64,000 bases of DNA from Chthoniobacterales bacterium (GCA_038230215.1 JBBRNR010000001.1:428498-492497), one strand, 5' to 3'; numbered from the stretch's first letter, positions 1-23,163 are shown. A program made the numbers and translations. Notes: generated by a model not told the origin, from the sequence alone.

Positions 1-1
1 T

Positions 2-1728: not shown

Positions 1729-1762
1729 CCGTCCCGACCACCATTCCCCACTCTTTTTATTC

Positions 1763-2476: not shown

Positions 2477-2512
2477 GGCCTTCCCATCCAGAATTTTGTA
2501 AAAGTTAGACTC

Positions 2513-4633: not shown

Positions 4634-4674
4634 GTCTCTGGTGCGTTCTGAGTTTTCCCCAGCCGCCGCTGAAA

Positions 4675-7167: not shown

Positions 7168-7276
7168 TAACGGAGAGGCTAGGGAAATGCTGGGAAGGTT
7201 CAAGTTGCCAGCGACGCGAGCAAGGACGAATCCACCTGAATCCTCTGCAACTCGCATGGAGCGAAGCGGGTCTGGA

Positions 7277-8305
7277 CTAAAACACCGCCGCCATTGCGGC
7301 CCGCGCGGAATCCATCAGCCCGCGGCCGAGCGGAGTCAGGCGTCCGTGTTCCTCGACAACCTTCCACCCGCCTCGAAAAAACTGCGCGTTGGCCGCACTG
7401 TCCTTTTCCGCCAGTTCGGTTTGACTCGCATCGAGCACTCCAGAATCGAGCAGACGCCGCACGCAACGATACATGCGCGCCGACACATAGGTGGCATGGT
7501 AGATTCCCTCCATGGGCCGTGGATCGATCCGCAAGGGCGATTGGTAGCGCTCGTCTTCGCTGTTCAGTGTGAGCGGTTCCTCGGTTGTCATGCCGAAGAG
7601 AAGATTGTGCGCGCTTTCGTGGGCCAGCATTTGCACGAGTTCGAGCACGCCACCACCTCGTCTCGCATTGAGTAAAATGCCACCCCACATCATGAAACTC
7701 GAGGAGCCATCGAAGGTGAGGGCTGCCGGGTCCATACTGCCACTCGCGAGGGTAATCTCCCGGACGAGTTCGCTGATTTCATTCGCCAAGGCAGGGTCGC
7801 CAGCCTTCATCAGGTCAAAGGCACCCTCGATCAGGGCGCGGCATTGGACCGATTCCTCGGGCCGGGGCGGAAAAATTTGAAAATCGGACCCCGTGTCCGC
7901 GATAAAGAACCGGACATAGCGCGCCGCAGCCTCGTCGTGGCGCGGGTCCACCAGTTCCTGAATGCGCAATCCCCCGGAAAAGGAGGGCAGTGCGATGAGC
8001 TTCTGCCAGAAGCCTCGCGCCTCGGCGTATTCTTCCCTTTCGAGGGCCAGAACAATGTCGAAATAGTAACTAAAGGCCACCGGCGACACGGGCGCGGCCT
8101 CCAAACGACCCAGAAAGGGCTCAATCTCCTGCGGCAAAGTGTCGAGGACTGTCCCAGCCTGCTCCTGAATATGGCGCAGACTGTTGGCCAGCCGCGACCG
8201 CATGAGCTGATCCATCTGCCGGGCGCGCACGGCATCCGGCTCGAAGTCCCATGAGAAATTTCCGGCGGCCATTCTCCGATCCAGACCGGTTTCAGCCGTC
8301 GCCAT
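7277..8305 (-). CDS. HExxH-motif protein, resembling the HEXXH peptide-modification / aKG-HExxH hydroxylase family
   Basis: The 342-aa protein has a single HESAH motif (MLAHESAHNLLF), followed by PMEGIYHATYVSARMY. Length and motif spacing recall the TIGR04267-type HEXXH domain proteins. This is recollection, not a search. Confidence 0.55.
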   Translation of the reverse strand: MATAETGLDRRMAAGNFSWDFEPDAVRARQMDQLMRSRLANSLRHIQEQAGTVLDTLPQEIEPFLGRLEAAPVSPVAFSYYFDIVLALEREEYAEARGFWQKLIALPSFSGGLRIQELVDPRHDEAAARYVRFFIADTGSDFQIFPPRPEESVQCRALIEGAFDLMKAGDPALANEISELVREITLASGSMDPAALTFDGSSSFMMWGGILLNARRGGGVLELVQMLAHESAHNLLFGMTTEEPLTLNSEDERYQSPLRIDPRPMEGIYHATYVSARMYRCVRRLLDSGVLDASQTELAEKDSAANAQFFRGGWKVVEEHGRLTPLGRGLMDSARAAMAAVF

Positions 8306-8313
8306 GGAGGAAA

Positions 8314-8463
8314 TTAGCGAATCTTGAGTCCTTGTTTAGTCCCGATTTTCGAGCCGAGCTTCACCAGGGTTGCGGCGGTCAGGCCTTGGGCGCGATCGTC
8401 GACCACGAGGTTGAAGCCGAGAAGTTTTTTCCAGTCGAGTTGCACTTTGGTCGTTGTATTCAT
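8314..8463 (-). CDS. candidate 49-aa small ORF (possible precursor peptide) just upstream of the HExxH gene
   Basis: Not in the ORF track (under 60 aa). My translation of the minus strand from ATG 8463 to TAA 8316-8314 is MNTTTKVQLDWKKLLGFNLVVDDRAQGLTAATLVKLGSKIGTKQGLKIR. It ends 8 nt before the HExxH start codon on the same strand. No obvious Shine-Dalgarno sequence. Confidence 0.3.
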   Translation of the reverse strand: MNTTTKVQLDWKKLLGFNLVVDDRAQGLTAATLVKLGSKIGTKQGLKIR

Positions 8464-8511
8464 GGGCTCATTTTGCCAAAGCTCTGCCAGCTGTCAATCG
8501 CCAATCGACTC

Positions 8512-9606
8512 ATGGTTTACTTTCTTACGACCCAGACCGGCGCTTTCACCCTCGGAGAGGTGCGCCGGTCGAGGATTCGTCGGCAAATGCGCATCCTGGA
8601 CTACGATTCCGCCCTTCAGAAACGCCATTTCGCGCCCGGCACCTATATCTTTACCGACATCGACCGGCTGCACTACCGCCAGCGCGAGGAAGCTGCCCGA
8701 CTCTATCTGCATCTGCGAAACGAAGGCTGCCCCGTGCTCAACGACCCCGCCCTCGTCCAGACCCGCTACCCGCTCCTGCGCACCTTGCACCAGGCCGGCA
8801 TCAACCAATTCTCCGCCCAGCGTGCCTCCGAGCTCGCCGAGCCCCTGCGCTTCCCCGTCTTCATTCGCAACTGCCATGAACACGGCCGACCCTTCTCCGA
8901 TCTGCTCCACTCCCTCGGCGAAGTCCACGCCGAGATCGCCCGCATCGTACAATCCGGCTGCCCGCGCGAGCACCTCATCGTCGTCGAATACGCCGCCGAA
9001 CCCGTCCGGCCCGGCTTGTTTCTGAAATACTCCGCCTTCCGCATGGGCGGTCAGATCCTCCCCCACACTACCGTCCACGAAGGGCGTTGGCTGGTGAAAT
9101 GGGGCACCATGGGCATCGGAGTCGAGGAAGATTACCTCCAGGAACAACGCATGCTCCTCGCCCAGCCCTATGCCTTTCGCGAAATCTTGGAAAAAGTCTT
9201 CCGCCTGGCCGACATCGAGTATGGCAGGGCCGACTTCAGCCTCTACCAGGGCCAGCCGCAGATCTACGAGATCAACACCAACCCGCACGTCACCGCCCCA
9301 CGCCCGCACCCCTTCCCCACTCGGGAACGCAATCAGGACCTCATCTGGCACGCCTACCTCGATGCCGTGCTCGCGATGGACACTCCGTCCCTCCACGCCG
9401 TCGCGTCGTTTCCCGCAGCCAAAAAACCGTGGAGCCCGCCCCATCCCCTTCAGGAAAAAGCCTCCAAAATCCTGGTGAAACTCCAATTTTGGAACCACTC
9501 CGCCTGTCATTGGGCTGTAACCCGGATGAAACAGCACCAAAAAGCCCTCCAAAAGTATCGCGCCAAGAAAGCCCGCGACCGCCAGCGCCGCTCTGGTCAG
9601 CCCTGA
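8512..9606 (+). CDS. ATP-grasp domain protein
   Basis: I chose the internal ATG at 8512 (MVYFLTTQ...); the upstream part of the track ORF overlaps the divergent genes. The C-terminal ...YGRADFSLYQGQPQIYEINTNPHV matches the ATP-grasp Mg/ATP-binding E-x-N signature. The PVFIRNCHEHG...LIVVEY central-domain pattern also fits. Confidence 0.6.
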   Translation: MVYFLTTQTGAFTLGEVRRSRIRRQMRILDYDSALQKRHFAPGTYIFTDIDRLHYRQREEAARLYLHLRNEGCPVLNDPALVQTRYPLLRTLHQAGINQFSAQRASELAEPLRFPVFIRNCHEHGRPFSDLLHSLGEVHAEIARIVQSGCPREHLIVVEYAAEPVRPGLFLKYSAFRMGGQILPHTTVHEGRWLVKWGTMGIGVEEDYLQEQRMLLAQPYAFREILEKVFRLADIEYGRADFSLYQGQPQIYEINTNPHVTAPRPHPFPTRERNQDLIWHAYLDAVLAMDTPSLHAVASFPAAKKPWSPPHPLQEKASKILVKLQFWNHSACHWAVTRMKQHQKALQKYRAKKARDRQRRSGQP

Positions 9607-9692
9607 AGTCGCCCACCTCACCTCCCCAACGCGCCGGACGCGGCCATCTCACTTATTGCCGCCGGGAGCGGAGTTGGATAGAAATCTCCTCG

Positions 9693-11900
9693 ATGTCCGC
9701 CACTCTTCCTCTCTTGCAACGTCTCTTTGGCAGCCTTCTCCGCACGCTCATCTATCGCGTCACCATCCAGGGTCTGGAAAACCTCCCGCGCACCGGCGGC
9801 GTGCTCCTCGTTCCCAACCACCTTACCTATGTGGACGCCGTCGTTCTGCAACTCGCCTGTCCCCGACCCGTGCGATTTCTGGTTCATCGCACCATCTACG
9901 AAATTCCCTGGCTGAACCTCGTTTTCCGCTGGATCAAAGCCATCCCCATCTCGGAAACGCAGGCCAAGGAGGCGATCCGACTCGCCTCGGAAAGACTGAC
10001 CGACGGCGAAGTCGTCTGCATTTTTCCCGAGGGCGAACTCAGCCGCAGCGGGACGTTACTCAAGCTGAAAAAAGGCTTCGAACTCATCGCCCGTCGCGCT
10101 GGCACTCCCGTGGTCCCCGTCTGGCTCGACCGGCTCTGGGACTCCATCTTTTCTTTCAAGGGCGGACACTTTTTTAAGAAAATGCCCACGCGCATTCCGT
10201 ATCCGGTGACGGTCTCCTTCGACGTCCCGATTCCGGCGCCGCAAGCCGATGTCGCCACAGTTCGCGAACGTCTGCTCGTTCTCGGCGAAGCGGCGTATCA
10301 GGCCCGCCAGGAGCTCCAGGGGCATCTCGGTCGCGCGTGCATTCGTGGCCTGAAAAAGCAGTCGAGTTCCATTGCACTCATCGACGGCACCGATCATTCG
10401 GAGTTGAGCCGGGGGATGTTGCTCGCCATCGCCATCGCCCTCAGCCGCCATCTGCGACGTCGTTTTCCCGGTCAGCGCATCGCCATCGTTTTGCCGCCCG
10501 GCAAAGGCGCGGTCATTGCCAATCTCGCCACCGTTCTCGCCGACAAAGTCCCCGTGAATCTGAACCTCACCGCCGGACGCTCCTCCCTCGAATCTGCCAT
10601 TGCCCGCGGCGACATCGATGTGGCGATTACCGCTGACCTCGTGCAGCGCCGTTTCAAAGACATTCCGTGGCCCAAACACGTTGTCCACCTCGAAGCCCTC
10701 CTGCCCCAGCTCAAGCCGCAAATCATTTTCTGGCGCATCTTCGCCACGATTCTGCCCGCCCGATTTCTCGCTTGGTGCATCGATCTCCCGCGCCGAGGCA
10801 ACCGCAAGGAAGCCGTCCTCCTCTTCACCAGTGGGAGCTCCGGCGAACCCAAAGGCGTCGCCCTCAGCCATCGCAATATCCTCGCCAACGTCGCTCAATT
10901 CAGCTCCATGCTCAGCCTTCCGCCGCGCTCCACCATCCTCGCGTCGCTCCCGTTTTTCCACAGCTTCGGCTGCACCGTCACCCTCTGGTATCCACTCATC
11001 GAAGGATTGCGCTCGGTCACGTATCCGTCGCCATTGGAAACGAACAAAAACATCGAACTCATCGAGAAACACCAAGTCACCCTCCTCTGCTCCACGCCCA
11101 CCTTTCTCCGCGGCTACATCCGCAAAGCGAAACCCGAGCAACTCCGCTCCCTCGATTTCGTCGTCACCGGCGCCGAAAAACTCCCCAACGAACTCGCCAC
11201 CGCCTTCGAGGCCGCGCTCGGCTTGCCCGTCCTCCAGGGCTACGGCCTCACCGAAACTTCTCCCGCCGTCGCCGTCAATCTGCCCGACCCAAAAGCCTCG
11301 CGTCCGAACGACACCATCCAGCCCTCCAATCGCCCGGGCAGCGTTGGAAAACTTCTCCCCGGTCAGGCCATCCGCATCACCGATCCCGATACCGACGCCC
11401 CGCGTTCGCTCCACGAAACCGGCATGCTCTGGATCAAAGGCGCGAACATTTTCTCCGGCTACCTCAATGACCCCGCCCGCACCGCCGAAGTCCTGCAAGA
11501 CCACGGCTGGTTTCGCACCGGCGACCTCGCCCGCATGGACGAAGACGGCTTCCTTTTCATCGAGGGCCGCCTCTCGCGCTTTTCGAAGATCGGCGGAGAA
11601 ATGGTCCCGCACGAAACTGTCGAAATGGCCGTCGCGGAAGCCATGCAACTCGACCCCGGTGGCGACCGCAAACTCGCCATCGGCGCCATCCCCGACGAAG
11701 CGAAAGGCGAGGCGCTCGTGCTCCTCACCACAGTCGAGTTAGATTCCACTCTGCTCCGCAAAAAACTCAGCGACGCCAGCATCCCCAATCTCTGGATCCC
11801 CAAGATTATCTCGCGAGTGGAAAAAATCCCCGTCCTCAGCACTGGCAAACTCGACCTCGCCGGAGTCAAAGAGCTGTGCGCCGCCACAGTCAGCAGATAG
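9693..11900 (+). CDS. aas: bifunctional lysophospholipid acyltransferase / acyl-ACP (AMP-dependent) synthetase, Aas-like
   Basis: Start chosen at MSATLPLLQRLF (9693). PlsC-type HX4D motif PNHLTYVDAVV and FPEGELSR. AMP-binding motifs LLFTSGSSGEPKGV, GYGLTETS, TGDLARMDEDGFLFIEGR. The upstream 200 codons of the track ORF are Pro/Arg-rich shadow sequence. Confidence 0.8.
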   Translation: MSATLPLLQRLFGSLLRTLIYRVTIQGLENLPRTGGVLLVPNHLTYVDAVVLQLACPRPVRFLVHRTIYEIPWLNLVFRWIKAIPISETQAKEAIRLASERLTDGEVVCIFPEGELSRSGTLLKLKKGFELIARRAGTPVVPVWLDRLWDSIFSFKGGHFFKKMPTRIPYPVTVSFDVPIPAPQADVATVRERLLVLGEAAYQARQELQGHLGRACIRGLKKQSSSIALIDGTDHSELSRGMLLAIAIALSRHLRRRFPGQRIAIVLPPGKGAVIANLATVLADKVPVNLNLTAGRSSLESAIARGDIDVAITADLVQRRFKDIPWPKHVVHLEALLPQLKPQIIFWRIFATILPARFLAWCIDLPRRGNRKEAVLLFTSGSSGEPKGVALSHRNILANVAQFSSMLSLPPRSTILASLPFFHSFGCTVTLWYPLIEGLRSVTYPSPLETNKNIELIEKHQVTLLCSTPTFLRGYIRKAKPEQLRSLDFVVTGAEKLPNELATAFEAALGLPVLQGYGLTETSPAVAVNLPDPKASRPNDTIQPSNRPGSVGKLLPGQAIRITDPDTDAPRSLHETGMLWIKGANIFSGYLNDPARTAEVLQDHGWFRTGDLARMDEDGFLFIEGRLSRFSKIGGEMVPHETVEMAVAEAMQLDPGGDRKLAIGAIPDEAKGEALVLLTTVELDSTLLRKKLSDASIPNLWIPKIISRVEKIPVLSTGKLDLAGVKELCAATVSR

Positions 11901-11924
11901 AAATTCCAGTAACCTTTTCGATCC

Positions 11925-13136
11925 ATGAAAAATTGCATTCCCCTGGAGAAAATCTATTTCTGGCTCCGCTGGCCGCGAGGTTTTGTGGCAAGCCTGGCGA
12001 TCTATTCCGCCGTGTTTTTTTTCGTGCTGCTCGTCTGGACGTTTGGTAATGCGAGGCGCGAGGCGAAGTTTGGCCATAACAAGGACCAGGGGGAGTATGT
12101 GGCCCTGGCCAAAGACTTTAAGGACGGCCATTTTCTCACTGCCAACTTCAAGCCGCATCGACACCCGCTTTATCCGGCGTTGCTCGTGCCGGTGCTCGCG
12201 CTGGCTCCCGACAATGTCCACTGGCTGGGAGCCGTCAACGGCGTGGTGGGGTTGCTCGCCGTCGGGCTGACTTACTTTTTCGTTTTTCGGGCCGGGAAGC
12301 TGCATGGACCCGCGGCCTGCATTTCCATCCTGCTCGCGACCAACTTTTTTTTCATCAAGATGGCAGACATGGGCATCGTGACCGAGCCGACTTACATCCT
12401 CATGACTCTCTGCGCCGTGTGGTTGCTGGCCGATTATTGTTCCAAAAATAAACTCCGCCATCTCGTGGCGGGCTCTGTCTTCTTGGGTCTCGCTTTTATG
12501 ACACGACCCAATGGCATCCTGCTTTTAGTCGGATTACTAGCCACATTGTTCGTGAAATTCTGCTCGTCAGTGGCGGGCGGAATCCGGCTGCCAGCCTGCC
12601 TGCTAACATGGGTCCGGGATTCCATCGTGGCAGCTCTCGTCTTTGCTGTGGTCGCCAGCCCGCTGTTGTGGGTTAAGTCCAGGCTCTATGGGAACCCGCT
12701 GATGCAAGGCAAGATCATGCAGTATATGTGGAACGACGATTACGAGATGGCGCGCAGTAAAAAAGCGGCGCACAGCTTGTCGGAATATGTGTCCGCTCAT
12801 GGATGGGAAAGCATGGTGCGCCGGGCCGCAACAGGGCTGGCTGAAGTATTTTTTATCGTTCCGCTCGAGGAGGAGGTTCTGCCTATTTTGTATATCACTG
12901 CATTTGTTGGTGTGACGCTGGCTCTGGGGTCCATCCAAAAAAGTCGGGCATGGCCGGTGGGGCCGTTGATCTTCATTTTCTGTGTCGTCCAAATGCTGCC
13001 ACTCGCCTGGACGGCCATTTCCAATCCCACACATCGGATTCCGTATGCAGCCATCCTGCCATTCCTGTTGTTTTTTGGAGCTCACGGCCTCATCGAAATC
13101 TACAAAAGACAACTGGCCACCACTCCAGCCAGGTGA
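11925..13136 (+). CDS. polytopic membrane glycosyltransferase, GT39/ArnT-like
   Basis: The 403-aa protein has about 9-10 hydrophobic segments. An early extracytoplasmic loop with DQGEYVALAKDF resembles the acidic loop motif of ArnT/PMT-type transferases. Confidence 0.5.
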   Translation: MKNCIPLEKIYFWLRWPRGFVASLAIYSAVFFFVLLVWTFGNARREAKFGHNKDQGEYVALAKDFKDGHFLTANFKPHRHPLYPALLVPVLALAPDNVHWLGAVNGVVGLLAVGLTYFFVFRAGKLHGPAACISILLATNFFFIKMADMGIVTEPTYILMTLCAVWLLADYCSKNKLRHLVAGSVFLGLAFMTRPNGILLLVGLLATLFVKFCSSVAGGIRLPACLLTWVRDSIVAALVFAVVASPLLWVKSRLYGNPLMQGKIMQYMWNDDYEMARSKKAAHSLSEYVSAHGWESMVRRAATGLAEVFFIVPLEEEVLPILYITAFVGVTLALGSIQKSRAWPVGPLIFIFCVVQMLPLAWTAISNPTHRIPYAAILPFLLFFGAHGLIEIYKRQLATTPAR

Positions 13137-14113
13137 AATCCTCCATCGAAATCCTCCGGCTGCGTCCGAGGCACGTTTTTCGAATCAGCCGTGGGGCCAA
13201 GGCGGATGTTAGCAATGTGATCTTGAAACTTTCCCATGCGGGTTGCATCGGAATCGGGGAAGCCTCTCCCAACGCCTTTTACAACGAGACTGCGGACGAC
13301 GTCGCCAGCCGACTTACATCGCTTTCCGACTGGCTCACGGGCATCACCATTTCCAGCGCGGAAGACATCATTTCGCTCTGGCCCGCCATCTGGCAGCGCG
13401 TGCAACCATCCCGCGCCGCCGCCTGCGCCGTCGATCTCGCGCTCTGGGATTGGCTGGCGCAATCTCGGTCTGTCACGCTCTCAGAATTGCTTTGGAACGA
13501 ACCAGCGCGCCCGGTCACGAGCTGCGTCACCCTGGGACTTTCCGAGCCCGAGGAACTCGACGCCAAACTGACCGAACTCGCCGGTTTCCCGCTGATTAAA
13601 ATCAAACTCGACCGCAAAAATCCCGTCGAACTCGTCACCCAGATTCGCCAACTAACTTCCGCTCGACTCGTGGTCGATGCGAACGCCGCCTGGGACGCCG
13701 AAATGCTTTCTAACATCGCACCGCAACTCGCCTCACTCGACGTCGAATTCATCGAACAACCGCTCCCGCCCGGCGCTGATTTCACTGCCACTCGACCGCC
13801 TGTTTTCGCCGACGAAAGCTGCGTCACCCCTGAAGACGTGGACCGTCTGCCCGACGTATTTTCCGGGTTCAACATCAAGCTCGTCAAATGCGGCGGCAGC
13901 ACGCCCGCGCTCGAAATGCTGAAGCGCGGCCAACGTCGCGGACTCCGCACCATGACCGGCTGCATGTTAGAAAGCAGCGTCCTCATCGCCGCCGGCTACG
14001 CCCTCGCCCAACGCACCGACTACGCCGACCTCGACGGCGCCTGGCTGCTCCATTCGGAGCCGTTCGGGCGCGTCCGCTTCACCAATGGCATCATCACTTC
14101 CTTATTGTCTTGA
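13133..14113 (+). CDS. dipeptide epimerase (L-Ala-D/L-Glu epimerase type), enolase superfamily
   Basis: The GTG start at 13133 overlaps the upstream stop (GTGA). Motifs IGIGEASP, LIKIKLD, VVDANAAW, EFIEQPL, FADESC, NIKLVKCGG, CMLESS and DLDG match muconate-lactonizing/dipeptide epimerase subgroup catalytic positions. Confidence 0.8.
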   Translation: MKSSIEILRLRPRHVFRISRGAKADVSNVILKLSHAGCIGIGEASPNAFYNETADDVASRLTSLSDWLTGITISSAEDIISLWPAIWQRVQPSRAAACAVDLALWDWLAQSRSVTLSELLWNEPARPVTSCVTLGLSEPEELDAKLTELAGFPLIKIKLDRKNPVELVTQIRQLTSARLVVDANAAWDAEMLSNIAPQLASLDVEFIEQPLPPGADFTATRPPVFADESCVTPEDVDRLPDVFSGFNIKLVKCGGSTPALEMLKRGQRRGLRTMTGCMLESSVLIAAGYALAQRTDYADLDGAWLLHSEPFGRVRFTNGIITSLLS

Positions 14114-14208
14114 GATTAATTTCTCCCTCCTTCTAGGCTTCTCGAACTAGCAAAAAGAGGCGATCCGCTATTCCCAGCGGAAAAGTTTTCTGCTTTCCTC
14201 GGAGGTCC

Positions 14209-15078
14209 ATGAATCTCCTCACCTGCGATCTTCCCGGCATCCCGAAACTGCGCAGCGGCAAAGTCCGCGAAGTCTTCGATCTCGGCGAGCAGTTGCTGAT
14301 CGTGGCGACGGACCGCATTTCGGCTTTCGATTGTGTGTTTCCCGAAGCAATTCCCGGCAAGGGCGAGGTGCTTACTCAACTCAGTCGCTGGTGGTTCGAG
14401 CAGTTTCCTAACATTGCAAATCATTACATCTCGGCGGACGTGGACGAGTTTCCAAGCGAGTTGCATCCGTATCGGAAGGAGCTGGCCGGGCGCTCGATGT
14501 TGGTGAAAAAGACCACGCCACTTCCAGTCGAATGCGTCGTGCGCGGCTATCTCGCTGGCTCCGGCTGGAAGGAATATCAAACCTGCCGCACCGTCGGCGG
14601 ACATCCCGCGCCGATGGGAATGCAGAATGCGGACATTCTGCCCGCGCCGCTTTTCACGCCATCGACCAAGGCCGATGAAGGTCACGATGAAAACATCACC
14701 TGGGATCGGTGCGTGGAGATTCTGGGTGCTAACATTGCCCGCCAAGTGCGCGATTTCAGCATCGAGCTTTACACGAGGGGCCGCGACATCGCTGCTGCGA
14801 AAGGGATCATTATTGCGGATACGAAGTTTGAGTTTGGGCTGTTAGATGGCGAGGTGATTTTGATCGACGAATGTCTCACGCCCGATTCGTCGCGCTTCTG
14901 GCCGGCAGATTCCTATGCGCCGGGATCGAATCCGCCCAGCTACGACAAGCAGTTTGTGCGCGATTATCTGGAGACTCTCGATTGGGATAAAACTCCGCCC
15001 GCACCGTCGCTGCCTGCGGAGGTGATCGCGAAGACGTCCCAGAAATATCGCGAGGCTTTTGAGAGGCTAACGCGATGA
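14209..15078 (+). CDS. purC: phosphoribosylaminoimidazole-succinocarboxamide synthase (SAICAR synthetase)
   Basis: SGKVREVFDLGEQLLIVATDRISAFD, GYLAGSGWKEY, IIADTKFEFG, DSSRFWP are classic long-form PurC motifs. Confidence 0.95.
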   Translation: MNLLTCDLPGIPKLRSGKVREVFDLGEQLLIVATDRISAFDCVFPEAIPGKGEVLTQLSRWWFEQFPNIANHYISADVDEFPSELHPYRKELAGRSMLVKKTTPLPVECVVRGYLAGSGWKEYQTCRTVGGHPAPMGMQNADILPAPLFTPSTKADEGHDENITWDRCVEILGANIARQVRDFSIELYTRGRDIAAAKGIIIADTKFEFGLLDGEVILIDECLTPDSSRFWPADSYAPGSNPPSYDKQFVRDYLETLDWDKTPPAPSLPAEVIAKTSQKYREAFERLTR

Positions 15079-15094
15079 CGCGCGAAGCTCATGT

Positions 15095-15231
15095 TCTGGG
15101 GAGCGCAGGCCGCTGGCCTGCAGTTTTTGGGGGCTCCCCCAAAACATTTTTCTGGCACGTTAGACCTTGCACGAGTCAATGTGGCAGGCGGGCCGCCTGC
15201 CACTGCAGGCCAGCGGCCTGCGCTCCCCAGA
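15095..15231. repeat. perfect 29-bp inverted repeat with 79-nt spacer containing nested palindromes
   Basis: Left arm 15095-15123 TCTGGGGAGCGCAGGCCGCTGGCCTGCAG is the exact reverse complement of 15203-15231. The spacer holds TTTTGGGGG/CCCCCAAAA and GTGGCAGGCGG/CCGCCTGCCAC (15181-15203). It lies in the purC-xerD intergenic region. Confidence 0.9.
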
Positions 15232-15245
15232 GATTGTCTTGACCG

Positions 15246-16136
15246 ATGCAAGAGGACATCGACGACTTCCTGCTTTTTCTAGCGGTCGAGCGCGGGCTCT
15301 CGACTAACTATCAGCTCAATGTCCGCATTTCGCTGGAGCGGTTTGTTGGCTGGCTCCAAAAAAACACCCGGGTGACGGCGTTCTCTAAAGTGAATCTGGA
15401 GCACATCACCGAACATCTGGCGCATCGCAAACGCAGTGGACTCGCTGCGGGTTCGATTAAACTCATCATCGTATCTTTGCGTATTTTCTTCCGGTTTCTG
15501 GTAAAGGAGAAGCGCGTAAAGGCCGACATCGCTGGCGTCCTCCCGCTGCCACGACTCACCCGGTTTCTGCCGGAGACGCTGAATGAAATGCAAGTCGAGA
15601 AGTTGTTAGGCGGGCTGCCGACCAACCATCCGACGGCACTGCGCGAGCGAGCGATGATCGAGTTGCTCTACGCCAGCGGTCTGCGGGTTTCCGAGTTGGT
15701 GAATGCGCGTCTGGAAAACATCAATCTGGAGGAAGGCTGGATTCGCGTGATCGGCAAAGGCGACAAGATGCGGCTTGTGCCCGTCGGCAAACGCGCGCTG
15801 GAGGCGATCCAGAATTATCTAACTGTGGAGCGACCGCGCGTCGTCTCGAAGAAGACTGGCAGCGAGATTTTTCTGAACCGGCGCGGCACGAAGCTGACAA
15901 CCGTTCGCATCTGGCAGATCGTGAAGCAATCGGCGAAGTTTGCCGGCATCGACACGAATGTCTATCCGCACTTGCTGCGCCATTCGTTTGCAACTCATTT
16001 GCTAGGAAACGGAGCCGACTTGCGCATCATTCAAGAGATGTTAGGTCACGCTGATATCGCCACAACCCAGATCTACACCCATGTGGATCGCGACCATCTG
16101 AAATCGATCCATCGCAAGTTTCACCCGCGAGGTTAG
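15246..16136 (+). CDS. xerD: site-specific tyrosine recombinase XerD/XerC
   Basis: N-terminal SAM-like domain (FLLFLAVERGLSTNYQ). Catalytic motifs ELLYASGLRVSEL, HLLRHSFATHLL, LGHADIATTQIYTHV. The length of 296 aa is typical of Xer recombinases. Confidence 0.85.
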   Translation: MQEDIDDFLLFLAVERGLSTNYQLNVRISLERFVGWLQKNTRVTAFSKVNLEHITEHLAHRKRSGLAAGSIKLIIVSLRIFFRFLVKEKRVKADIAGVLPLPRLTRFLPETLNEMQVEKLLGGLPTNHPTALRERAMIELLYASGLRVSELVNARLENINLEEGWIRVIGKGDKMRLVPVGKRALEAIQNYLTVERPRVVSKKTGSEIFLNRRGTKLTTVRIWQIVKQSAKFAGIDTNVYPHLLRHSFATHLLGNGADLRIIQEMLGHADIATTQIYTHVDRDHLKSIHRKFHPRG

Positions 16137-16140
16137 TTTT

Positions 16141-16452
16141 TCATTCGACTTCCACTTCGATCCCGCCAATCCACTTGACGAAAAGGTTGTAGATGGCGGC
16201 ACCAACAATGCCTGTAATGAAGCCCATCAAACCGTAGAAGATCGGCATGAAGATCATAAGTCCCAGGCCAAGCCCCGCAAACATGGCTCCAGGCGTTGCG
16301 GGCATGTTAGGCTGCTTGGGGATGAAAGCTCCAGCCAAGGCAATGACGCCGAAAATTGGTACGAAGATCAGACCCATCGCTCCATAGAGAGCTCCTAACA
16401 TTTTTCCCAATTGCATCGGGGCGATGCGGACGAGACGTTTTTTGAGAGCCAT
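16141..16452 (-). CDS. small integral membrane protein (3 transmembrane segments), unknown function
   Basis: The 103-aa protein is Gly/Ala/Ile/Phe-rich with hydrophobic segments and a clean ATG. It is convergent with xerD with a 4-nt gap. Confidence 0.5.
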   Translation of the reverse strand: MALKKRLVRIAPMQLGKMLGALYGAMGLIFVPIFGVIALAGAFIPKQPNMPATPGAMFAGLGLGLMIFMPIFYGLMGFITGIVGAAIYNLFVKWIGGIEVEVE

Positions 16453-16464
16453 AAGATTCGGATG

Positions 16465-17331
16465 TTAGCTAACGAATTCCAATTCCACGGGAGCTGGAAT
16501 CAGGCCGGCTTCGCTGGCTGCACCTAGAAATGTGGTGATCGCTTTTCTACCGGTGACGCCGTAGTCGAGCGTGTAGTCGTTGACATACATGCCGATGAAT
16601 TTGTCGGCCATCGCAAGGTCGAGTCCGCGTGCCAGGGGCATCGAATGTTGCACGCCCGCGAGCCGGTTTTTGAGGCCGTATTCGATGCTGTCCTTCAGCA
16701 CGATGGAGAGTTCGTGGCGGATTTCGGGTTCGATGTCTTTGCGAATGACATTGCCACCGAGCGGGAGCGGCAGGCCGGTGCTGCGTTTCCACCATTCGCC
16801 CATGTCGAGGAGGAGCTCGAAGCCGTCGGCGGCATAGGTGAGCTGGCCCTCGTGAATGATGAGTCCGACATCGGCGCGTCCGTCTTTCACCGCAGCAAAA
16901 ATCTCATCAAACGGCACGACGATGTAATCCACTTCGCCCACAAACAGCCGAAGGGAAAGGAACGCGCTCGTCCGTGTGCCGGGGATCGCCACAGTGCGAC
17001 CTTTCAACCAGGCGCGCACTCCTTCGTCACTCTTCGAAGCGGGCAAATTTGCGGTTGGCAACCCGACTAACATCGGCCCGTAACCGTCGCCCATGCTGGC
17101 TCCGCAGGTGAGCAGTGCGTATTTATCGAGCACGTAGGCGTAGGCGTGGATCGAGACGGCGGAAATGTGCAATTCCCCGCGCGTCGCCCGGTCGTTGAGC
17201 GTCTCGATGTCCTGGAGAATGTGCTCAAACTCGAAGCCACGCAGGTCGATTTTTTTCTCCGCCATCGCGTAAAACATGAACGCGTCGTCCGGATCGGGGG
17301 AGTGTCCGAGGGTGAAAAATTTTTGAGCCAT
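16465..17331 (-). CDS. MqnA/MqnD family menaquinone (futalosine pathway) biosynthesis protein
   Basis: Start chosen at MAQKFFTLGHSPDPDDAFMFYAM (17331). The GHSPxPxDxFxFYA N-terminal motif is characteristic of MqnD/MqnA periplasmic-binding-fold enzymes. Confidence 0.7.
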   Translation of the reverse strand: MAQKFFTLGHSPDPDDAFMFYAMAEKKIDLRGFEFEHILQDIETLNDRATRGELHISAVSIHAYAYVLDKYALLTCGASMGDGYGPMLVGLPTANLPASKSDEGVRAWLKGRTVAIPGTRTSAFLSLRLFVGEVDYIVVPFDEIFAAVKDGRADVGLIIHEGQLTYAADGFELLLDMGEWWKRSTGLPLPLGGNVIRKDIEPEIRHELSIVLKDSIEYGLKNRLAGVQHSMPLARGLDLAMADKFIGMYVNDYTLDYGVTGRKAITTFLGAASEAGLIPAPVELEFVS

Positions 17332-17372
17332 GACGGCGAGTCTAAGGGAAAGATTAGAGTGCCGCCAAGTTT

Positions 17373-17852
17373 TTAACCGTTTCCCCAAGGCTGCAATTCG
17401 TGGCTGAGCATCTCCTCACCGGCGAAAACGAAGCGTCCGTCCATCTTTTCTCCGGCCAGAATCTGCGGCAGCCAGAGCGCGTCGTCCTGCCACATTTCGC
17501 CGTAGGGAATCGCCTCCAGCTCGCACCAAAACGGGTCCGCCTCGGGAGTCGCATGTGGCTCGCCCTCGTGCGCGAACGCCAGAAAAACGGAGCATTGGAG
17601 CTGGAATCCATCGGTGAAATGAAAGGACAACTCCGCCACATGACGCGGCTCGAGCGGTGTCACACCCACCTCCTCCTGAGTCTCGCGAATGGCGCAGGCG
17701 AGCGCCGTTTCACCCGGCTCGATTTTTCCGCCGGGCGCGTTAACTTTGCCAATGCCGAGCCCGCGCAGTTTGTGAATCAGAAGCACACGGCTGCCCTCAA
17801 TCACAAAACAGAGCGTCGCTCGTTCTTGCGGAATCCAGTTATTCCAATCCAT
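17373..17852 (-). CDS. NUDIX hydrolase (MutT/8-oxo-dGTPase-like)
   Basis: Nudix box GGKIEPGETALACAIRETQEEVGV. Confidence 0.8.
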   Translation of the reverse strand: MDWNNWIPQERATLCFVIEGSRVLLIHKLRGLGIGKVNAPGGKIEPGETALACAIRETQEEVGVTPLEPRHVAELSFHFTDGFQLQCSVFLAFAHEGEPHATPEADPFWCELEAIPYGEMWQDDALWLPQILAGEKMDGRFVFAGEEMLSHELQPWGNG

Positions 17853-17911
17853 CGGGGGACAGCGTAGGATGGTTTTCTCGATCCGAAAACCAGGAAATCA
17901 GGAGAAAAAAT

Positions 17912-18694
17912 ATGAAAACTCTCATCGGCATGATTCATCTCGGGGCCTTGCCCGGCACACCGCGATCGCAGTCGTCCGTGGCCGAAATCGCGCGCCGCGC
18001 CGTGGCCGAGGCGAGGATTTATCGCGAGGCCGGATTTCCCGCGGTGCTCATCGAAAACATGCACGACACACCGTATCTCGCGCGTGAAGTCGGACCGGAA
18101 ATCGTCGCCTCCATGACCATCGCCGCGCAGGCCGTGCGCACGGAATTTCCCGGGAAGATCGGGCTGCAAATTCTCGCCGGAGCGAACGAGTCCGCTCTGG
18201 CCGTGGCGCTGGCAGCGGAGTTGCAGTTCATTCGCGCCGAGGCCTTCACCTTCGGCCACGTCGCCGACGAGGGTTGGATGGATGCCTGCGCCGGGCCTCT
18301 CCTACGCTATCGACGCGCCATCGGGGCAGACGCCGTGGAAGTCTGGGCCGACATTAAAAAGAAACACGCGTCGCACGCGCTCACCGCCGATATTTCCCTC
18401 GGGGAAACCGCTGCCGCCGCCGAATACATGGGCGCGAGCGCGGTGATCGTCACAGGCCGGGTTACGGGCGACGCTCCTAATATCGGCGACTTTACCGATC
18501 TCCGCTCGCACACATCGCTCCCGGTCGTCATTGGCTCCGGCATTTCTGAATCCAATCTAACTCAACTGTGGCCTCTGGCAGACGCGTTTATCGTTGGCTC
18601 CAGTCTGAAAAAAGGCGGCCACTGGCACGGAGACCTCGACCCGCGCGCTACGGAATCGCTTGCCAGTGCCGCCGCGCGACTAACCGTTTCCTAA
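17912..18694 (+). CDS. BtpA/SgcQ family protein
   Basis: MKTLIGMIHLGALPGTPRS start and VLIENMHDTPY, GASAVIVTGRVTG, VVIGSG motifs are typical of BtpA TIM-barrel proteins. Confidence 0.8.
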   Translation: MKTLIGMIHLGALPGTPRSQSSVAEIARRAVAEARIYREAGFPAVLIENMHDTPYLAREVGPEIVASMTIAAQAVRTEFPGKIGLQILAGANESALAVALAAELQFIRAEAFTFGHVADEGWMDACAGPLLRYRRAIGADAVEVWADIKKKHASHALTADISLGETAAAAEYMGASAVIVTGRVTGDAPNIGDFTDLRSHTSLPVVIGSGISESNLTQLWPLADAFIVGSSLKKGGHWHGDLDPRATESLASAAARLTVS

Positions 18695-18695
18695 C

Positions 18696-20129
18696 ATGCG
18701 GCTTCCCGGCCTCCGCAGCATTCACTGGAAGGTGTTTGTCTCGCATCTGCTCATCCTCATTCTTCCCTGCAGCTACCTCATTTGGACCGCCCGCGGCGTG
18801 GTCGAACGCGCCTGGCTACAATCCACCGAGGAAGGCCTCATCGACGTCGCCACCATCACCGCCGGCGTCTATGCGAAGGCCGTGGAAACCGGAACCGCCA
18901 ATCCGGCTTTCATTCGATTCGGACTCAACTCTGTGATTGAGGGGCTGCGCGCGGGCAAACCTCTCAAGTCACGCATTTTTGGCAGCGAACGCACCGCCTT
19001 CGATCTCGAACTCATCCTCTGCGACGACAAAGGCCAGATCGTTTACGACACGCTCGGACGCACAGGAAAATTGCACACCAACGACGTTGTCCAAGCCCGA
19101 CTCGGCAATTACGGCGCGCGCTGGGAGCACATCGATGGCACGGTGAAACTCTACAGCACAGTACCAGTCCGCGTCGGTGATCGCATCGTCGGCACCGTCA
19201 CCGCAGTCAAGCCCACGAAGCGCATCGCAGTCTTCATCCTCACCACCCTCCTCAAGTTCGCGATCCCGGTGATGCTGGCTTTTTCGCTCGCCGCGATTTT
19301 GGCCTACGTCATCTCCGGCTACATCACGAGGATTGTTAGACAACTCGCCAGCCAGGCCGAGTCGATTGCCGCCGGACACCCTAACATCAAACTGGAAACC
19401 TGGACCCGCAGCGAACTGGGAATGCTGGCCCGCGCTCTGGAAAAGATGCGACTCAAACTCGAGGGCAAGGCCTACGTCGAGGACATGGTGACCAACCTTT
19501 CCCACGAGCTAAAAACCCCGCTCGCTGCCATTCGTGGTGCTGCGGAAATTTTGGAAGATTCCGAACAGCCGGAAGTGCGCCAGCGTTTTCTAACTAACAT
19601 CCAGCACGAGGTCGCACGGCTCGATCAAATCGTTGGCAACGTCCTCGCCCTCAGCCGCGTGGAAAGCCAGCGCTCGACTAACATGGCCATCGACATTGCC
19701 GCCATCACGCGGACCTTGGCACAATCCCACGCCGTCCGAGCCACAGCGCTGCAATGCGACTTCCATGCCGATGTCGCCGTGGGCGAGATTTGCCTAACCA
19801 TCGCCACGCAACAATGGCAACTGCTCTGCAACAATCTCCTCGACAACGCCCTCCGCTTCAGTCGGCCTGGAGGCGCTGTTAGTCTGCGGCTCAGTCTCGA
19901 AAACGACATCATTGTTCTCGAAGTCAGCGACCAAGGCGTTGGCATCGAACCCGACTTGCTCCCGAAGATTTTCGACCGCTTTTTCACGACGCCAGCGCCA
20001 GCCACGGGGGAGCGCGGCACCGGGCTCGGGCTCGCCATTGTTAGATCTATCGTCGAGAGCCACCAAGGCACGATCACAGTACAACCTAACTCGCCTGCGG
20101 GCACCGTTTTCCGGGTTAAGTTTCATTGA
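18696..20129 (+). CDS. sensor histidine kinase, CreC-like
   Basis: Two transmembrane segments flank a periplasmic domain. H-box SHELKTPLAAIRGAAEIL, N-box LLDNALRFS, G1 DQGVGI, G2 GTGLGLAIV. The N-terminal STEEGLIDVATITAGV resembles the CreC sensor region. The start ATG is 1 nt after the btpA stop. Confidence 0.8.
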   Translation: MRLPGLRSIHWKVFVSHLLILILPCSYLIWTARGVVERAWLQSTEEGLIDVATITAGVYAKAVETGTANPAFIRFGLNSVIEGLRAGKPLKSRIFGSERTAFDLELILCDDKGQIVYDTLGRTGKLHTNDVVQARLGNYGARWEHIDGTVKLYSTVPVRVGDRIVGTVTAVKPTKRIAVFILTTLLKFAIPVMLAFSLAAILAYVISGYITRIVRQLASQAESIAAGHPNIKLETWTRSELGMLARALEKMRLKLEGKAYVEDMVTNLSHELKTPLAAIRGAAEILEDSEQPEVRQRFLTNIQHEVARLDQIVGNVLALSRVESQRSTNMAIDIAAITRTLAQSHAVRATALQCDFHADVAVGEICLTIATQQWQLLCNNLLDNALRFSRPGGAVSLRLSLENDIIVLEVSDQGVGIEPDLLPKIFDRFFTTPAPATGERGTGLGLAIVRSIVESHQGTITVQPNSPAGTVFRVKFH

Positions 20130-20193
20130 AATCTTCTCGTAAACTTCGCGCTAGCTTCATCAGAACTTCACAGAGCCCCGCCAGAGTCGGCGC

Positions 20194-21819
20194 ATGTTTT
20201 CACGCACATCCGCTCTCGCCCTCCTCCTCATTTTCCCGCAACTCGCACCTGCCGCAGACGCGCCCGGCAAGGTAGAACTTTCGCTCAGCCAGTGGCAGGA
20301 AACCATGGCGCGCTTAACCAAAGCCGAGACGCCGCTACCAGCAATCGAAAAGCCAGTCGCGCCCTGCCCGGCGATCATTTCCAGCGAGCGCTGCGAGGTG
20401 TCCTGGCAAAATGGACAATGGCGGCTGACCACCGATTTTGAAGTTGAGGTCTTGCAGGATCGCTGGCTCATTCTTCCCCTCGCCGACGCCGGACTTCCAT
20501 TGTTATCGAGCCAGGTTTCGGAGGGCCGGATTATCACAAAAGACGGTGCCTGTGCGCTGCTGACTAACAAACCGGGTCCAGTCAAAATCCGGCTCGTTCA
20601 GGAAACGCCGCAACCCATCGAGGATCTGGATTTCTGGGTATCCTCGGCGACTTCCATTCAGGCGCACCTAACATCAACGGAGCCCGGCCTGCATCTCACG
20701 CTGAACGAAGCCGCCCTAACCTCCGCCCCACTCGCCGTGGCTCCGGCGGAAAAGGAGCGCACTCCACTGCAATTCCGCCGCACTACGGTTCCGGCAGTGG
20801 AGAAAAAAGACCTCACGCCCGGAGTCTGGGAGAGTCGTTCCGAGACGCAGATCGCCTATGAGGACGGACGCCTGAATTACCACCATCGCGTCGTCCTGCT
20901 CTGCACCAGCGGAAATGATTCCGCAGCCACGCTCTTGCTTCCGCCAGACTGCATTGTCCTGCGCGTTGCAAGCGAGGAGCTGGATCGCTGGGAAGCCACT
21001 GCCGCGCAAGACCACATCGCACTGCAACTCGATTGGAAAAAACCTGGCGCTCGGCAGCGTATTCTCTTCGTTGATGTGGCGCGCTCGCAACCTAACATCA
21101 TGGCAAACTGGCCGCTCAACTCTCCGCAGACCGGACAACCCCAGCCGGAAGTCTGGCAGCTAACCATTCCCTCCGGACTGCGCACGACGGTTCCAGCGGA
21201 GCATCCATTGGCCGCGTCGCTCTCCACCTGGATGCAGGAGAAGCTAACAGGAAATGACGCCCCAGTTTTCCAGGCTTTGGCAGGTGTTAATATCCCTGTG
21301 ACTCCGCTCAAAACAATCGCGCTGGCCGAGGCGCGGATCGAGGCGGCCAGGTTCTCCAGCGAACTCGCAGCCGGTGGCGGAATGCTCTCGGATGCAACCC
21401 TCGAAATTGCCGCTACGGAGAAGACGACAGTCGATCTGCAATTTGAAAAAGACACGCGCATCATTTCCTGCCGCGTCGCCGGACAACGGCAAAACCCACT
21501 CGATTTGGGTGACGGTCGCATCCAACTGAGCCTGCCAGCGGCCCGCGATCGCATCTCGGTGGAACTCACTTTTTCCCAACAGCTTGTCGCGTTCGATCCG
21601 GCCAGCGGCCAGGTGCGACTGACCATGCCGCAGACGCCGCTTCTAACCAAGACCGCAAGTTGGAGGGTTCGGCTGCCCGACGGGCTCTCCCTGAGCGCGT
21701 TCGATGGAAGCGTGGTTGCCGATGCCTCGGGCGCGAGCGGCGAGCTGCATTTCCAGCAGGAGCTTTATCGCGACACCGCGCCGCTGGCCATTCTCTTCTA
21801 CCAAAAGAAAATCAAATGA
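20194..21819 (+). CDS. secreted protein of unknown function (541 aa)
   Basis: Signal peptide MFSRTSALALLLIFPQLAPAADA. No motif I recognise. It sits between the CreC-like kinase and the CreD-like membrane protein. Confidence 0.6.
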   Translation: MFSRTSALALLLIFPQLAPAADAPGKVELSLSQWQETMARLTKAETPLPAIEKPVAPCPAIISSERCEVSWQNGQWRLTTDFEVEVLQDRWLILPLADAGLPLLSSQVSEGRIITKDGACALLTNKPGPVKIRLVQETPQPIEDLDFWVSSATSIQAHLTSTEPGLHLTLNEAALTSAPLAVAPAEKERTPLQFRRTTVPAVEKKDLTPGVWESRSETQIAYEDGRLNYHHRVVLLCTSGNDSAATLLLPPDCIVLRVASEELDRWEATAAQDHIALQLDWKKPGARQRILFVDVARSQPNIMANWPLNSPQTGQPQPEVWQLTIPSGLRTTVPAEHPLAASLSTWMQEKLTGNDAPVFQALAGVNIPVTPLKTIALAEARIEAARFSSELAAGGGMLSDATLEIAATEKTTVDLQFEKDTRIISCRVAGQRQNPLDLGDGRIQLSLPAARDRISVELTFSQQLVAFDPASGQVRLTMPQTPLLTKTASWRVRLPDGLSLSAFDGSVVADASGASGELHFQQELYRDTAPLAILFYQKKIK

Positions 21820-21882
21820 AACTAACTAACATCGAACTCCGACTCGCCAAACTTCTAACCTCAAAACGCAAAAACTAAATTT

Positions 21883-23088
21883 ATGAGCATCAAACAACTT
21901 CTAACCATCGTCGTCATTTTCCTCTGCACCTGCATCGCCTGGGTAATATTGGGCACCAGCCTCTCCATGCGATCCGAATGGTCGTCCTCCGTTCTGCGCG
22001 GCCAGGTGGCGAACCAATGGGGCGGAGCGTTGCAGCAGGCGCATCCGGAGATCTTTATCGAGGCACCGGATGCGACGGGCGGGAAACGTTTTTTCTCCCC
22101 GGCGGAGTCGCATGTGACTGTGGCGATCCACAACGATCCAAAGCGCAAGGGACTGCTCTGGAATCGTACTTACAACGTGGATTTCAAAGCCGATTATCGC
22201 CTGGAAAACACCAGTCCGATCGACGAGACGATGTTCGTGGTTTTCAAATTTCCAGCGCGCGACGCAGGTTATGAAAACTTCGCCTTTGTGATCGATGGCC
22301 GGCCCAGCACGCAAAATCCGAAGCGCGGTGAACCGCTCACCGAATCGGTCCGTGTGCCCGCTGGAAAATCGGCGAAACTCCTCATCGCCTACCGCACGCG
22401 CGGTCTGGACTCGTGGGGTTACTCGTTTGGCGATGCGACGCGCATCCGAAATTTCGAGATGATGATGAGCACGGATTTCCGCGACTATAATTTTCCGGTC
22501 GGCACGAGTTCGCCGACAGCGCGGACGGACACAGCGAAGGGCTGCGATTTCACCTGGAACTACCCGGATGTGATCGGCGCGCAATCCATCGGAGTGGAAG
22601 TCCCGGTGAAGTTAAACCCCGGTCCGGTGGCGGCGAGGATCACGTTTTTTGCGCCGGTGTCGTTGCTCTTTTTCTTCGCAGTCGTGGTGCTTTGGTCTCT
22701 GGTCTCGCGGACTGCGATGCACCCGATGCACTTCTTTTTTCTGGCGGCAGGTTATTTCGCGTTCCAGTTGCTGTTCGCCTATCTGGTGGACCTGATTCCC
22801 TTGTTGGCCGCCTTCATGGTCGCTGCGGTGGTGTCGGTCGGGCTGGTCGGCGGTTACTTGCGACTGGCCTTTGGATGGGCTTTCACGAAATGGGTCGTGG
22901 TCGCACAAGTCGCCTACATGGCGCTCTTCAGCGCGAGTTTCTTTTTTGACGGACTCACCGGGCTGACGGTCACCCTGGGATCCATCGCGACACTGGCCAT
23001 CCTGATGGTAACCACGGCGAAGATCGACTGGACGACCAGGTTTCAGAAGAAAGTTGTTACTCCCCTCACCCCGGTCGCTGTCTCGTGA
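21883..23088 (+). CDS. CreD-like inner membrane protein
   Basis: Architecture: N-terminal transmembrane segment, about 230-aa exported domain, then 5 C-terminal transmembrane segments. The junction TAMHPMHFFFLAAGYFAFQLLFAYL resembles the LHPMQYLLVGLSLV segment of CreD. From memory. Confidence 0.55.
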   Translation: MSIKQLLTIVVIFLCTCIAWVILGTSLSMRSEWSSSVLRGQVANQWGGALQQAHPEIFIEAPDATGGKRFFSPAESHVTVAIHNDPKRKGLLWNRTYNVDFKADYRLENTSPIDETMFVVFKFPARDAGYENFAFVIDGRPSTQNPKRGEPLTESVRVPAGKSAKLLIAYRTRGLDSWGYSFGDATRIRNFEMMMSTDFRDYNFPVGTSSPTARTDTAKGCDFTWNYPDVIGAQSIGVEVPVKLNPGPVAARITFFAPVSLLFFFAVVVLWSLVSRTAMHPMHFFFLAAGYFAFQLLFAYLVDLIPLLAAFMVAAVVSVGLVGGYLRLAFGWAFTKWVVVAQVAYMALFSASFFFDGLTGLTVTLGSIATLAILMVTTAKIDWTTRFQKKVVTPLTPVAVS

Positions 23089-23163
23089 GAGCACTCCCCC
23101 ACTCCGCCCGGCGCAAAAAAGTGGCTTCCCGCTTTTCCGTTTCCCGGATACTTTGTCCATCCT

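Follow-up and report, generated by a model that had tools for sequence, protein, structure and literature searches.

Selective DNA uptake signals are, to our knowledge, known from only two families, both of host-associated Proteobacteria. These are the DNA uptake sequence (DUS) of the Neisseriaceae, GCCGTCTGAA and its dialects, and the uptake signal sequence (USS) of the Pasteurellaceae, AAGTGCGGT or ACAAGCGGT. Classical uptake sequences of this kind are 9-12 bp long, occur genome-wide, are evenly spaced and are often paired in terminators. Here we describe a shorter word, the pentamer CTAAC with its complement GTTAG, in a 64-kb stretch of DNA from a soil Chthoniobacterales bacterium (Verrucomicrobiota; GCA_038230215.1, JBBRNR010000001.1:428498-492497), the whole of which we call the window. 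The word is concentrated there in two islands. Island 1 proper consists of two blocks, 13208-17071 and 18557-21905, with edges near gene edges, and island 2 is the leucyl-tRNA synthetase gene, leuS. The islands are a strongly supported feature at the level of DNA, and several candidate mechanisms for them are weighed below.

By exact count there are 76 CTAAC/GTTAG sites in the window. A first-pass annotation, made from the sequence alone, had listed 43 of them between 12603 and 21905, and all 43 lie at the starts it gave. Its counts of 4 sites in 1-12602 and 5 in 46680-64000 also agree with ours, and its 5 sites in 21906-44358 become 6 (starts 24885, 28247, 31646, 38164, 38854 and 43732). A further 18 sites lie in 44359-46679, which it had left aside. 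Outside the islands there are 15 sites in 52.4 kb, or 0.29 per kb, compared with 4.6-7.8 per kb inside them, and the number of sites per kb is clustered, with a variance-to-mean ratio of 3.66 over the window. When all words of 3 to 8 nucleotides were contrasted between island and flanks, the only outliers were CTAAC (43 observed versus 2.8 expected) and words derived from it, such as CTAACA (25 versus 0.4), ATGTTAG (18 versus 0.3) and CTAACATC (10 versus 0.1).

The enrichment is not a by-product of the encoded proteins or of codon usage. In two null models the protein was held fixed and codons were either redrawn from the usage of the flanks or shuffled among synonymous positions within each gene. 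The nine genes of island 1 carry 35 in-gene sites, against 5.6 ± 2.2 under the first model and 7.2 ± 2.4 under the second (z 11-13), and leuS carries 18, against 1.7 ± 1.3 and 3.7 ± 1.7 (z 8-13); no shuffle attained the observed count in either case. The other 44 genes have 13 sites, against 24 ± 4.5 and 24 ± 4.4 (z -2.5), and are thus about two-fold low. The initial impression of an enriched island between depleted flanks therefore holds in its first half, while the depletion is about two-fold against these codon-aware nulls and largely generic. All words containing CTAA are rare in the flanks, where a maximal-order Markov model predicts 16.4 sites and 15 are observed, and the poverty of the flanks in CTAAC is mostly an ordinary effect of stop-containing words.

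The way in which the sites are written into genes indicates the level at which the word is imposed. In-gene sites occupy all four stop-free frames (CTA-ACN 17, NCT-AAC 14, NNG-TTA-G 13 and GTT-AGN 10), and the fifth frame is found only at a genuine stop codon. In-gene sites are in sense orientation 31 times and in antisense 24 times, and six more sites fall in spacers or gene junctions. We define an accessible position as a dipeptide at which the protein would permit the word. The density of such positions is alike across island and non-island genes, yet 34 of 175 (19%) are filled in island 1 and 18 of 43 (42%) in leuS, as against 13 of 791 (1.6%) elsewhere. Of the 55 in-gene sites, 30 make use of CTA or TTA, rare Leu codons that are enriched inside the motif only; since they are not enriched outside it, a regulatory explanation by rare codons, of the bldA type, is removed. 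The suspicion that a constraint acts on the DNA itself is thus borne out by the use of both strands, four frames, stop codons and spacers, and by the codon-preserving shuffles. CTAAC is imposed at the DNA level, mainly by the choice of synonymous codons and partly by amino-acid replacements at tolerant positions.

Several further sources of the word were tried and rejected. An 'ambush' by off-frame stops fails because only the exact word is enriched, and not other words bearing TAA or TAG. A target at the RNA level, for a MazF-type toxin or a small RNA, is at odds with the overall similarity of sense and antisense counts. Conversion from one precursor word by a deaminase or methyl-C type of process would leave a single source in aligned orthologues and none is seen, the alternatives found at the sites being many and including CCAAC, CTCAC, CGAAC and GCTGG. 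Plasmid and phage collections gave no match that would point to a mobile element.

In leuS the word has been written into an essential gene. In the sense of the mRNA its sites comprise 12 GTTAG and 6 CTAAC. We used homologues of LeuS and XerD to retrieve relatives at graded distances. The leuS gene of GCA_039930045.1 (L082; LeuS identity 95%) has 13 sites and that of GCA_043758065.1 (L083; 92%) has 22, both between motif-poor flanks; GCA_038228695.1 (L085; 85%) has 8, GCA_036388355.1 (L084; 89%) has 2, and the more distant L175 (78%) and L176 (76%) have none and one. The island is common to the window, L082 and L083, weaker in L085 and absent from L084, L175 and L176. Three of the leuS sites are specific to the window lineage and 5-7 to that of L083, and at two places the word stands in opposite orientation in different lineages. 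At 13 of 28 site positions the encoded residues are unlike those of all three outgroups, compared with 14% of background dipeptides, and the force has therefore altered the protein where this was tolerated. As a negative control we took 44 unrelated leuS genes from a metagenome scan, their products being 50-59% identical to that of the window. Their mean is 0.19 sites per kb and their maximum 1.56, and the coding of LeuS does not, therefore, by itself yield the pattern. The first-pass annotation had proposed three checks on its claim, and none refuted it: the enrichment exceeds that of codon-preserving shuffles, the density elsewhere in the window is low, and the unrelated orthologues do not share the word through their codons. 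Separately, one leuS site shows a 14-nt likeness to 16S rRNA (GGCTAACTCCGTGC), which we attribute to Glu-Leu (GAG-TTA-G) coding on the opposite strand.

Comparison with relatives indicates that the islands are inherited and still changing. A Logan contig (L001, run SRR19962015) has 100% identity to 14547-16591 (2045 bp), and islands in the same genes occur in GCA_039930045.1, GCA_043758065.1 and contigs from ENA/JGI. A sequencing or assembly artefact is rejected on the basis of the identical Logan contig and of the presence of the motif in both short-read and long-read metagenome-assembled genomes (MAGs). The gene xerD has 5 sites in the window, 9 in L091, 8 in L092, 5 in L003 and 2 in L086, and purC has 4, 3, 5, 3 and 1 in the same order; the histidine kinase gene of the second block has 9 in both the window and L091. 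At the nucleotide level the window is 80-87% identical to its nearest relative, alike in islands and flanks and with a flat profile across their borders, the per-gene identity ranks agree for every island gene, and G+C content at third codon positions (GC3) is the same in island genes as in the flanks. These three observations do not support a recent foreign import, and on such comparisons, with gene trees that are in mutual agreement, the word is judged to be natural and vertically inherited.

Codon alignments of the relatives reveal a mosaic in which some sites are shared and others are specific to a lineage. Across xerD, purC and the histidine kinase gene, 48-56% of pairwise comparisons show the word to be kept, while background 5-mers are kept in 32-35%, and third codon positions are identical in 63-76% of comparisons inside sites, against 56-57% outside. 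Five of 19 sites are common to the window and L003, which is the chance level at 75% identity. The alignments indicate independent gains of the word in sister lineages, a retention slightly above background and a force that is ongoing. The set of island-forming genes also varies by lineage. The mutS gene, for example, has 9 sites in L003 (16990-19581; GCA_038228695.1) and none in the window (4675-7257).

It had been proposed that the edges of the island are independent of gene edges and that it starts inside a gene resembling the GT39 glycosyltransferases. Neither proposal is upheld. Island 2 is exactly leuS, enrichment in the relatives follows the same genes, and only 1 of 31 accessible positions is filled in the GT39/PMT_2-like gene, which is the level of the flanks. 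In L091, the nearest relative, an insertion of four genes and 4.1 kb (10888-15015) separates xerD from the gene of the 103-amino-acid (103-aa) open reading frame (ORF) in the middle of the island, and it holds a single CTAAC. The enrichment is thus tied to gene sequences and not to the chromosomal neighbourhood. The features of the window are collected in Table 1.

Table 1. Positions of CTAAC features and of the structured RNA in the 64-kb window, counted from its first nucleotide
Feature	Position	Strand	Description
Isolated CTAAC	12603-12607	+	In GT39/PMT_2-like gene; 605 bp from next site; most likely a background site
Sub-island Ia	13208-17071		19 sites through enolase-superfamily racemase gene, purC, xerD, 103-aa ORF and mqnA
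Palindrome GTTAGCTAAC	16464-16473		Perfect; two sites head to head
Motif-free gap	17072-18556		Spans part of mqnA, NUDIX gene and most of btpA
Sub-island Ib	18557-21905	+	23 sites, 20 on plus strand
Spacer sites	21822-21859	+	Three, including tandem CTAACTAAC; upstream of CreD-like gene
Island 2	44359-46679		18 sites, all within leuS (44261-46780, minus strand)
RNase P RNA, bacterial class A	51904-52332	+	216.8 bits

In sub-island Ia, where 9 sites are on the plus and 10 on the minus strand, the word is extended on its 3' side to CTAACAT(C) or CTAACCAT. Its genes have 11-25% of their accessible dipeptide positions filled, gene by gene, and are enriched likewise in L091, L092 and L003. The palindrome lies inside an operon, in the 12-bp spacer between the stop of mqnA and the start of the 103-aa ORF. 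In the gap that follows, the NUDIX gene has no site in any of the five relatives compared and offers just 4 accessible positions, and a gap of similar size is also present in L091. Sub-island Ib comprises the 3' end of btpA, the histidine kinase gene, a 541-aa ORF without a Pfam or NCBIfam match, a 63-bp spacer with three sites and 23 nt at the start of the CreD-like gene. The spacer sites show the word to be dense also where a protein imposes no constraint. The block 18645-23163 (kinase, 541-aa ORF and CreD-like gene) is missing from L003 and L092, in which btpA is followed directly by lptF/lptG, and is present in L086 and in part in L091. The kinase gene and the 541-aa ORF are motif-rich, but the CreD-like gene is not. 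The palindrome, the tandem sites at 19590-19598 and 21822-21830, the gap and the three stop codons inside sites, those of xerD, mqnA and btpA, are all as the first-pass annotation described them.

Some observations stand apart from the islands as such. The stop of btpA and the start of the kinase gene are fused in an extended motif, CTAACATG, at 18691-18698 (TAA, C, ATG). The spacer between purC and xerD contains a perfect 30-bp inverted repeat (15095-15124 and 15202-15231), which flanks the GTTAG site at 15159 and a GC-rich hairpin (about 15184-15202); the unit is possibly a small intergenic element, structured or mobile. The RNase P RNA is the sole Rfam match in the window, which holds no tRNA, and two mechanically listed ORFs that overlap or abut it are probably not genes.

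The window is better understood beside its wider group. We fetched 80 orthologous 20-kb loci around mqnA and sorted their motif content into three states. In the first, a large clade of the mqnA tree, CTAAC nearly always occurs as the 9-mer GCCTAACGA. Among 431 sites in 16 loci of this clade (L021, L027, L029, L038, L041, L053, L054, L055, L061, L064, L065, L066, L069, L070, L072 and L076), position -2 is G in 330, position -1 is C in 349, position +1 is G in 363 and position +2 is A in 332. There are 223 exact copies of GCCTAACGA in 323 kb, 78% of them coding, at a density of about 1-1.9 per kb, and L054 alone has 21 copies where 0.13 are expected. Plus and minus sites number 201 and 230 over the 16 loci and are near-equal in each, with a two-to-one bias to the sense strand (167 versus 79). 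The sites are spaced more evenly than at random (variance/mean per kb mostly 0.4-1.1), and among 315 sites there are 5 close pairs, one of them inverted. Short-read and long-read assemblies show this state alike. In the second state, that of other clades, there are almost no copies. The third is that of the window clade, in which CTAAC is bare and G is avoided at +1. Within it the window subclade (the window, L091/L082, L083 and L092) is clustered, with a variance/mean of 2.9-3.9, compared with 1.2-1.4 in deeper relatives.

A density of about 1 per kb and an even spacing, both usual in uptake sequences, are thus found in the GCCTAACGA clade and not in the window, and the pair of words, GCCTAACGA and bare CTAAC, resembles a conserved core with lineage-specific dialects. 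From these properties GCCTAACGA looks like an undescribed uptake-signal-like sequence outside the Proteobacteria. In the searchable literature we found neither CTAAC nor GCCTAACGA described, and the uptake sequences we met there were those of Neisseriaceae and Pasteurellaceae only; searches aimed at verrucomicrobial uptake sequences and at over-represented words that form islands likewise found none described.

We tentatively suggest, with less than even confidence, that CTAAC may be an undescribed recognition word, read on double-stranded DNA by a cellular system of the Chthoniobacterales, most like DUS and USS, and clustered in a few genes of the window subclade. An uptake-like signal was among the candidates first put forward for this word, and it is the one that gained most support, through the evenly spaced 9-mer with the same core in the sister clade. 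DNA fragments with the word would be favoured in uptake or recombination between cells, and alleles richer in copies would spread as a molecular drive by uptake-biased recombination. In the window subclade the specificity would have shrunk to the 5-bp core. A single copy of so short a word would discriminate poorly, and the advantage would scale with the number of copies per fragment. Clustering could then run away on certain kb-sized stretches within conserved genes (leuS, purC-xerD and the block of the histidine kinase, with mutS in a relative), leaving the rest of the genome poor. Drive that depends on copy number in this way would account for islands of 2.3-9 kb, for sites that are randomly spaced and in both orientations and for the use of silent sites, as well as for a choice of genes that is lineage-specific and then inherited, and for the motif-poor recent insertion in L091. 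In Neisseriaceae, DUS are reported to be enriched in genes of aminoacyl-tRNA biosynthesis (synthetase), mismatch repair and recombination (10.1101/2025.10.24.684340, preprint), a bias that parallels leuS, xerD and, in L003, mutS.

It is possible, though doubtful, that soil Chthoniobacterales have a third, independent uptake-sequence system, with GCCTAACGA genome-wide in one large clade and degenerated in the window subclade to a 5-bp core, which would form copy-number-dependent 'uptake islands' in particular core genes. An island distribution of this kind is undescribed for any uptake sequence.

A number of observations speak against an uptake signal. The word is only 5 bp long, is present at 0.29 per kb outside the islands, where its count is at or below expectation, and is extremely clustered, in contrast to the classical 9-12 bp, genome-wide and even pattern. 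Inverted terminator pairs are rare, the window having one head-to-head pair (16464-16473). Because genome-wide abundance, even spacing and frequent terminator pairs are all lacking in the window, the islands cannot be filed as uptake sequences. In sub-island Ib, unlike the other islands, the coding-strand CTAAC fills 13 of 25 accessible positions and the antisense word 3 of 47, a strand-specificity that a double-strand uptake signal does not predict. Uptake words of the classical type raise uptake or transformation and are bound by a surface receptor, a ComP-type minor pilin; the window contains no competence or pilin gene, and mutS, a genome-maintenance gene, is without sites in it. The single-gene mqnA tree places the 9-mer clade apart from the window clade, and their common core could be convergent. 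Finally, runaway clustering is our own inference, and we know of no precedent for it.

The islands might instead be clusters of binding sites for a sequence-specific protein with a role in nucleoid structure, segregation, silencing or titration, with selection acting on the local number of sites. We regard this as unlikely, but it explains much. Clustering in the subclade is extreme (variance/mean 2.9-3.9), several species are hit in the same genes, and sites are retained above background. The 13 sites outside the islands, where 24 are expected, suggest mild avoidance, as if stray sites were harmful, and the 3' extensions in island 1, CTAACAT(C) and CTAACCAT, suggest a site of more than 5 bp. 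However, arrays of binding sites are positionally conserved or regular, and the CTAAC islands are neither. The distances between sites are exponential, and the spacing analysis found no helical (10-11 bp) or fixed phasing. Positions turn over, as the 5 of 19 common to L003 illustrate, and so do the genes concerned (mutS, which has its 9 sites in L003 but lacks them in the window; leuS, with 18-22 sites in the window and L083 versus 0-2 in L084, L175 and L176). The 9-mer clade would moreover need thousands of sites, and we know of no specific chromosomal binding protein with so many.

Less probable again is that a DNA methyltransferase, or a modification-based defence or epigenetic system, has CTAAC as its target, with the islands heavily modified and the remainder of the genome avoiding the site. 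A short, non-palindromic motif with adenines is what Type IIS, Type III or BREX-like systems recognise, the roughly two-fold avoidance outside the islands under the codon-aware nulls (z -2.5) would suit such a target, and motif content differs sharply among related genomes, as do mobile restriction-modification systems. Restriction targets are avoided, however, whereas here the word is enriched 5- to 10-fold inside the islands, and 6- to 10-fold at silent sites. Methyltransferase sites are usually shorter than the fully specified 9-mer of the sister clade, the mqnA tree shows the motif state to follow whole clades and not to be sporadic, and the window has no methyltransferase or restriction gene.

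We consider similarly improbable a repair bias without function, in which very-short-patch-like correction or biased gene conversion directed by the motif would turn near-matches into CTAAC wherever heteroduplex DNA is formed, the islands marking recombination-prone genes. Sites do appear in either orientation and whichever frame, the same permissive places being used repeatedly, and the excess conservation of single sites is modest. Several words that differ from CTAAC by one mismatch are low in island 1 (GTAAC 2 versus 8.3 expected, ATAAC 2 versus 6.2, CTGAC 6 versus 13.5 and CTTAC 2 versus 6.4), but others are undepleted (CTCAC 14 versus 13.5, TTAAC 7 versus 4.6 and CCAAC 20 versus 18.3), and any word-making force would deplete neighbours. 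No Vsr-like gene or cognate methyltransferase was seen, and the changed amino acids at 13 of 28 leuS positions would demand a strong bias.

It is very improbable that the islands came in by recombination, the donor being a lineage outside the sample with CTAAC abundant throughout its genome. The tracing of transfer by such words has a precedent, as Haemophilus uptake sequences occur in Neisseria genes, and block Ib, from the histidine kinase to the creD-like gene, is an insertion or deletion relative to L003 and L092. The equal identity and GC3 of islands and flanks and the congruent identity ranks of the island genes nevertheless speak against import, no sampled genome is uniformly at 5-8 sites per kb, and lineage-specific gains go on after divergence. 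Chance, codon or codon-pair usage, bldA-like regulation, artefact and the deliberate synonymous recoding that had first been entertained have practically no chance of being correct: the rare Leu codons held by the word are unenriched beyond it, and against such explanations stand the z of 8-13 under codon-preserving nulls, the use of both strands, spacers and stops, the 44 unrelated leuS genes, and islands that, far from being confined to one construct, fill the same genes in natural relatives, in MAGs from other studies and in an identical, independent Logan assembly.

If the uptake reading is true, bacterial sex of this kind would have a wider known range, one that takes in soil Verrucomicrobia, which are abundant and uncultured, and GCCTAACGA or arrays of CTAAC would offer a sequence handle for attempts at genetic transformation. 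Their arrangement in gene islands is relevant to the way in which such words build up, by drive or by selection and through single-copy or multi-copy recognition. Should the islands instead reflect a binding array, an epigenetic mark or a bias of repair, they would still be an unusually clean case of non-translational pressure on codon choice that acts gene by gene. Genes of this type should not be called foreign from their oligonucleotide composition.

Among known systems, DUS and USS are the most similar. Like them, CTAAC is a short word that both strands carry, within genes and between them, and that uses each frame open to it. It is written at silent sites and tolerant residues, has a conserved core with flanks that vary by lineage in the manner of dialects, and favours some housekeeping and genome-maintenance genes. 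The 9-mer of the sister clade is USS-like in its length, density (about 1 per kb), even spacing and independence of frame. The word of the window differs in being 5 bp long, confined to kb-scale islands, seldom paired in terminators and, in one block, strand-biased. The cyanobacterial highly iterated palindrome HIP1 (GCGATCGC) is likewise a lineage-specific word, over-represented in coding and non-coding DNA and evolutionarily maintained, of unclear function. HIP1 is however palindromic, genome-wide and tied to a cognate methyltransferase, whereas CTAAC is clustered, and both it and GCCTAACGA are asymmetric. Chi (the 5-mer AGCGG of Bacillus subtilis; GCTGGTGG of Escherichia coli) and the FtsK-orienting polar sequences (KOPS) and architecture imparting sequences (AIMS) are also short, over-represented, lineage-specific and active at the level of DNA. 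They are co-oriented with replication and form no gene islands, while the orientation here is mixed: 9:10 in Ia and 12:6 in leuS, only Ib being skewed at 20:3. A Chi-like signal, once suggested for the window, is thus not supported, there being no overall strand skew. Clusters of parS, clusters of DnaA boxes (datA) and plasmid iterons share with CTAAC a short word that is locally dense and partly inside genes; their sites are 9-16 bp long, few, positionally conserved and often regular, and those of CTAAC are random and turn over. The finding belongs among the lineage-specific over-represented DNA words, of which its distribution in gene islands is an unusual form.

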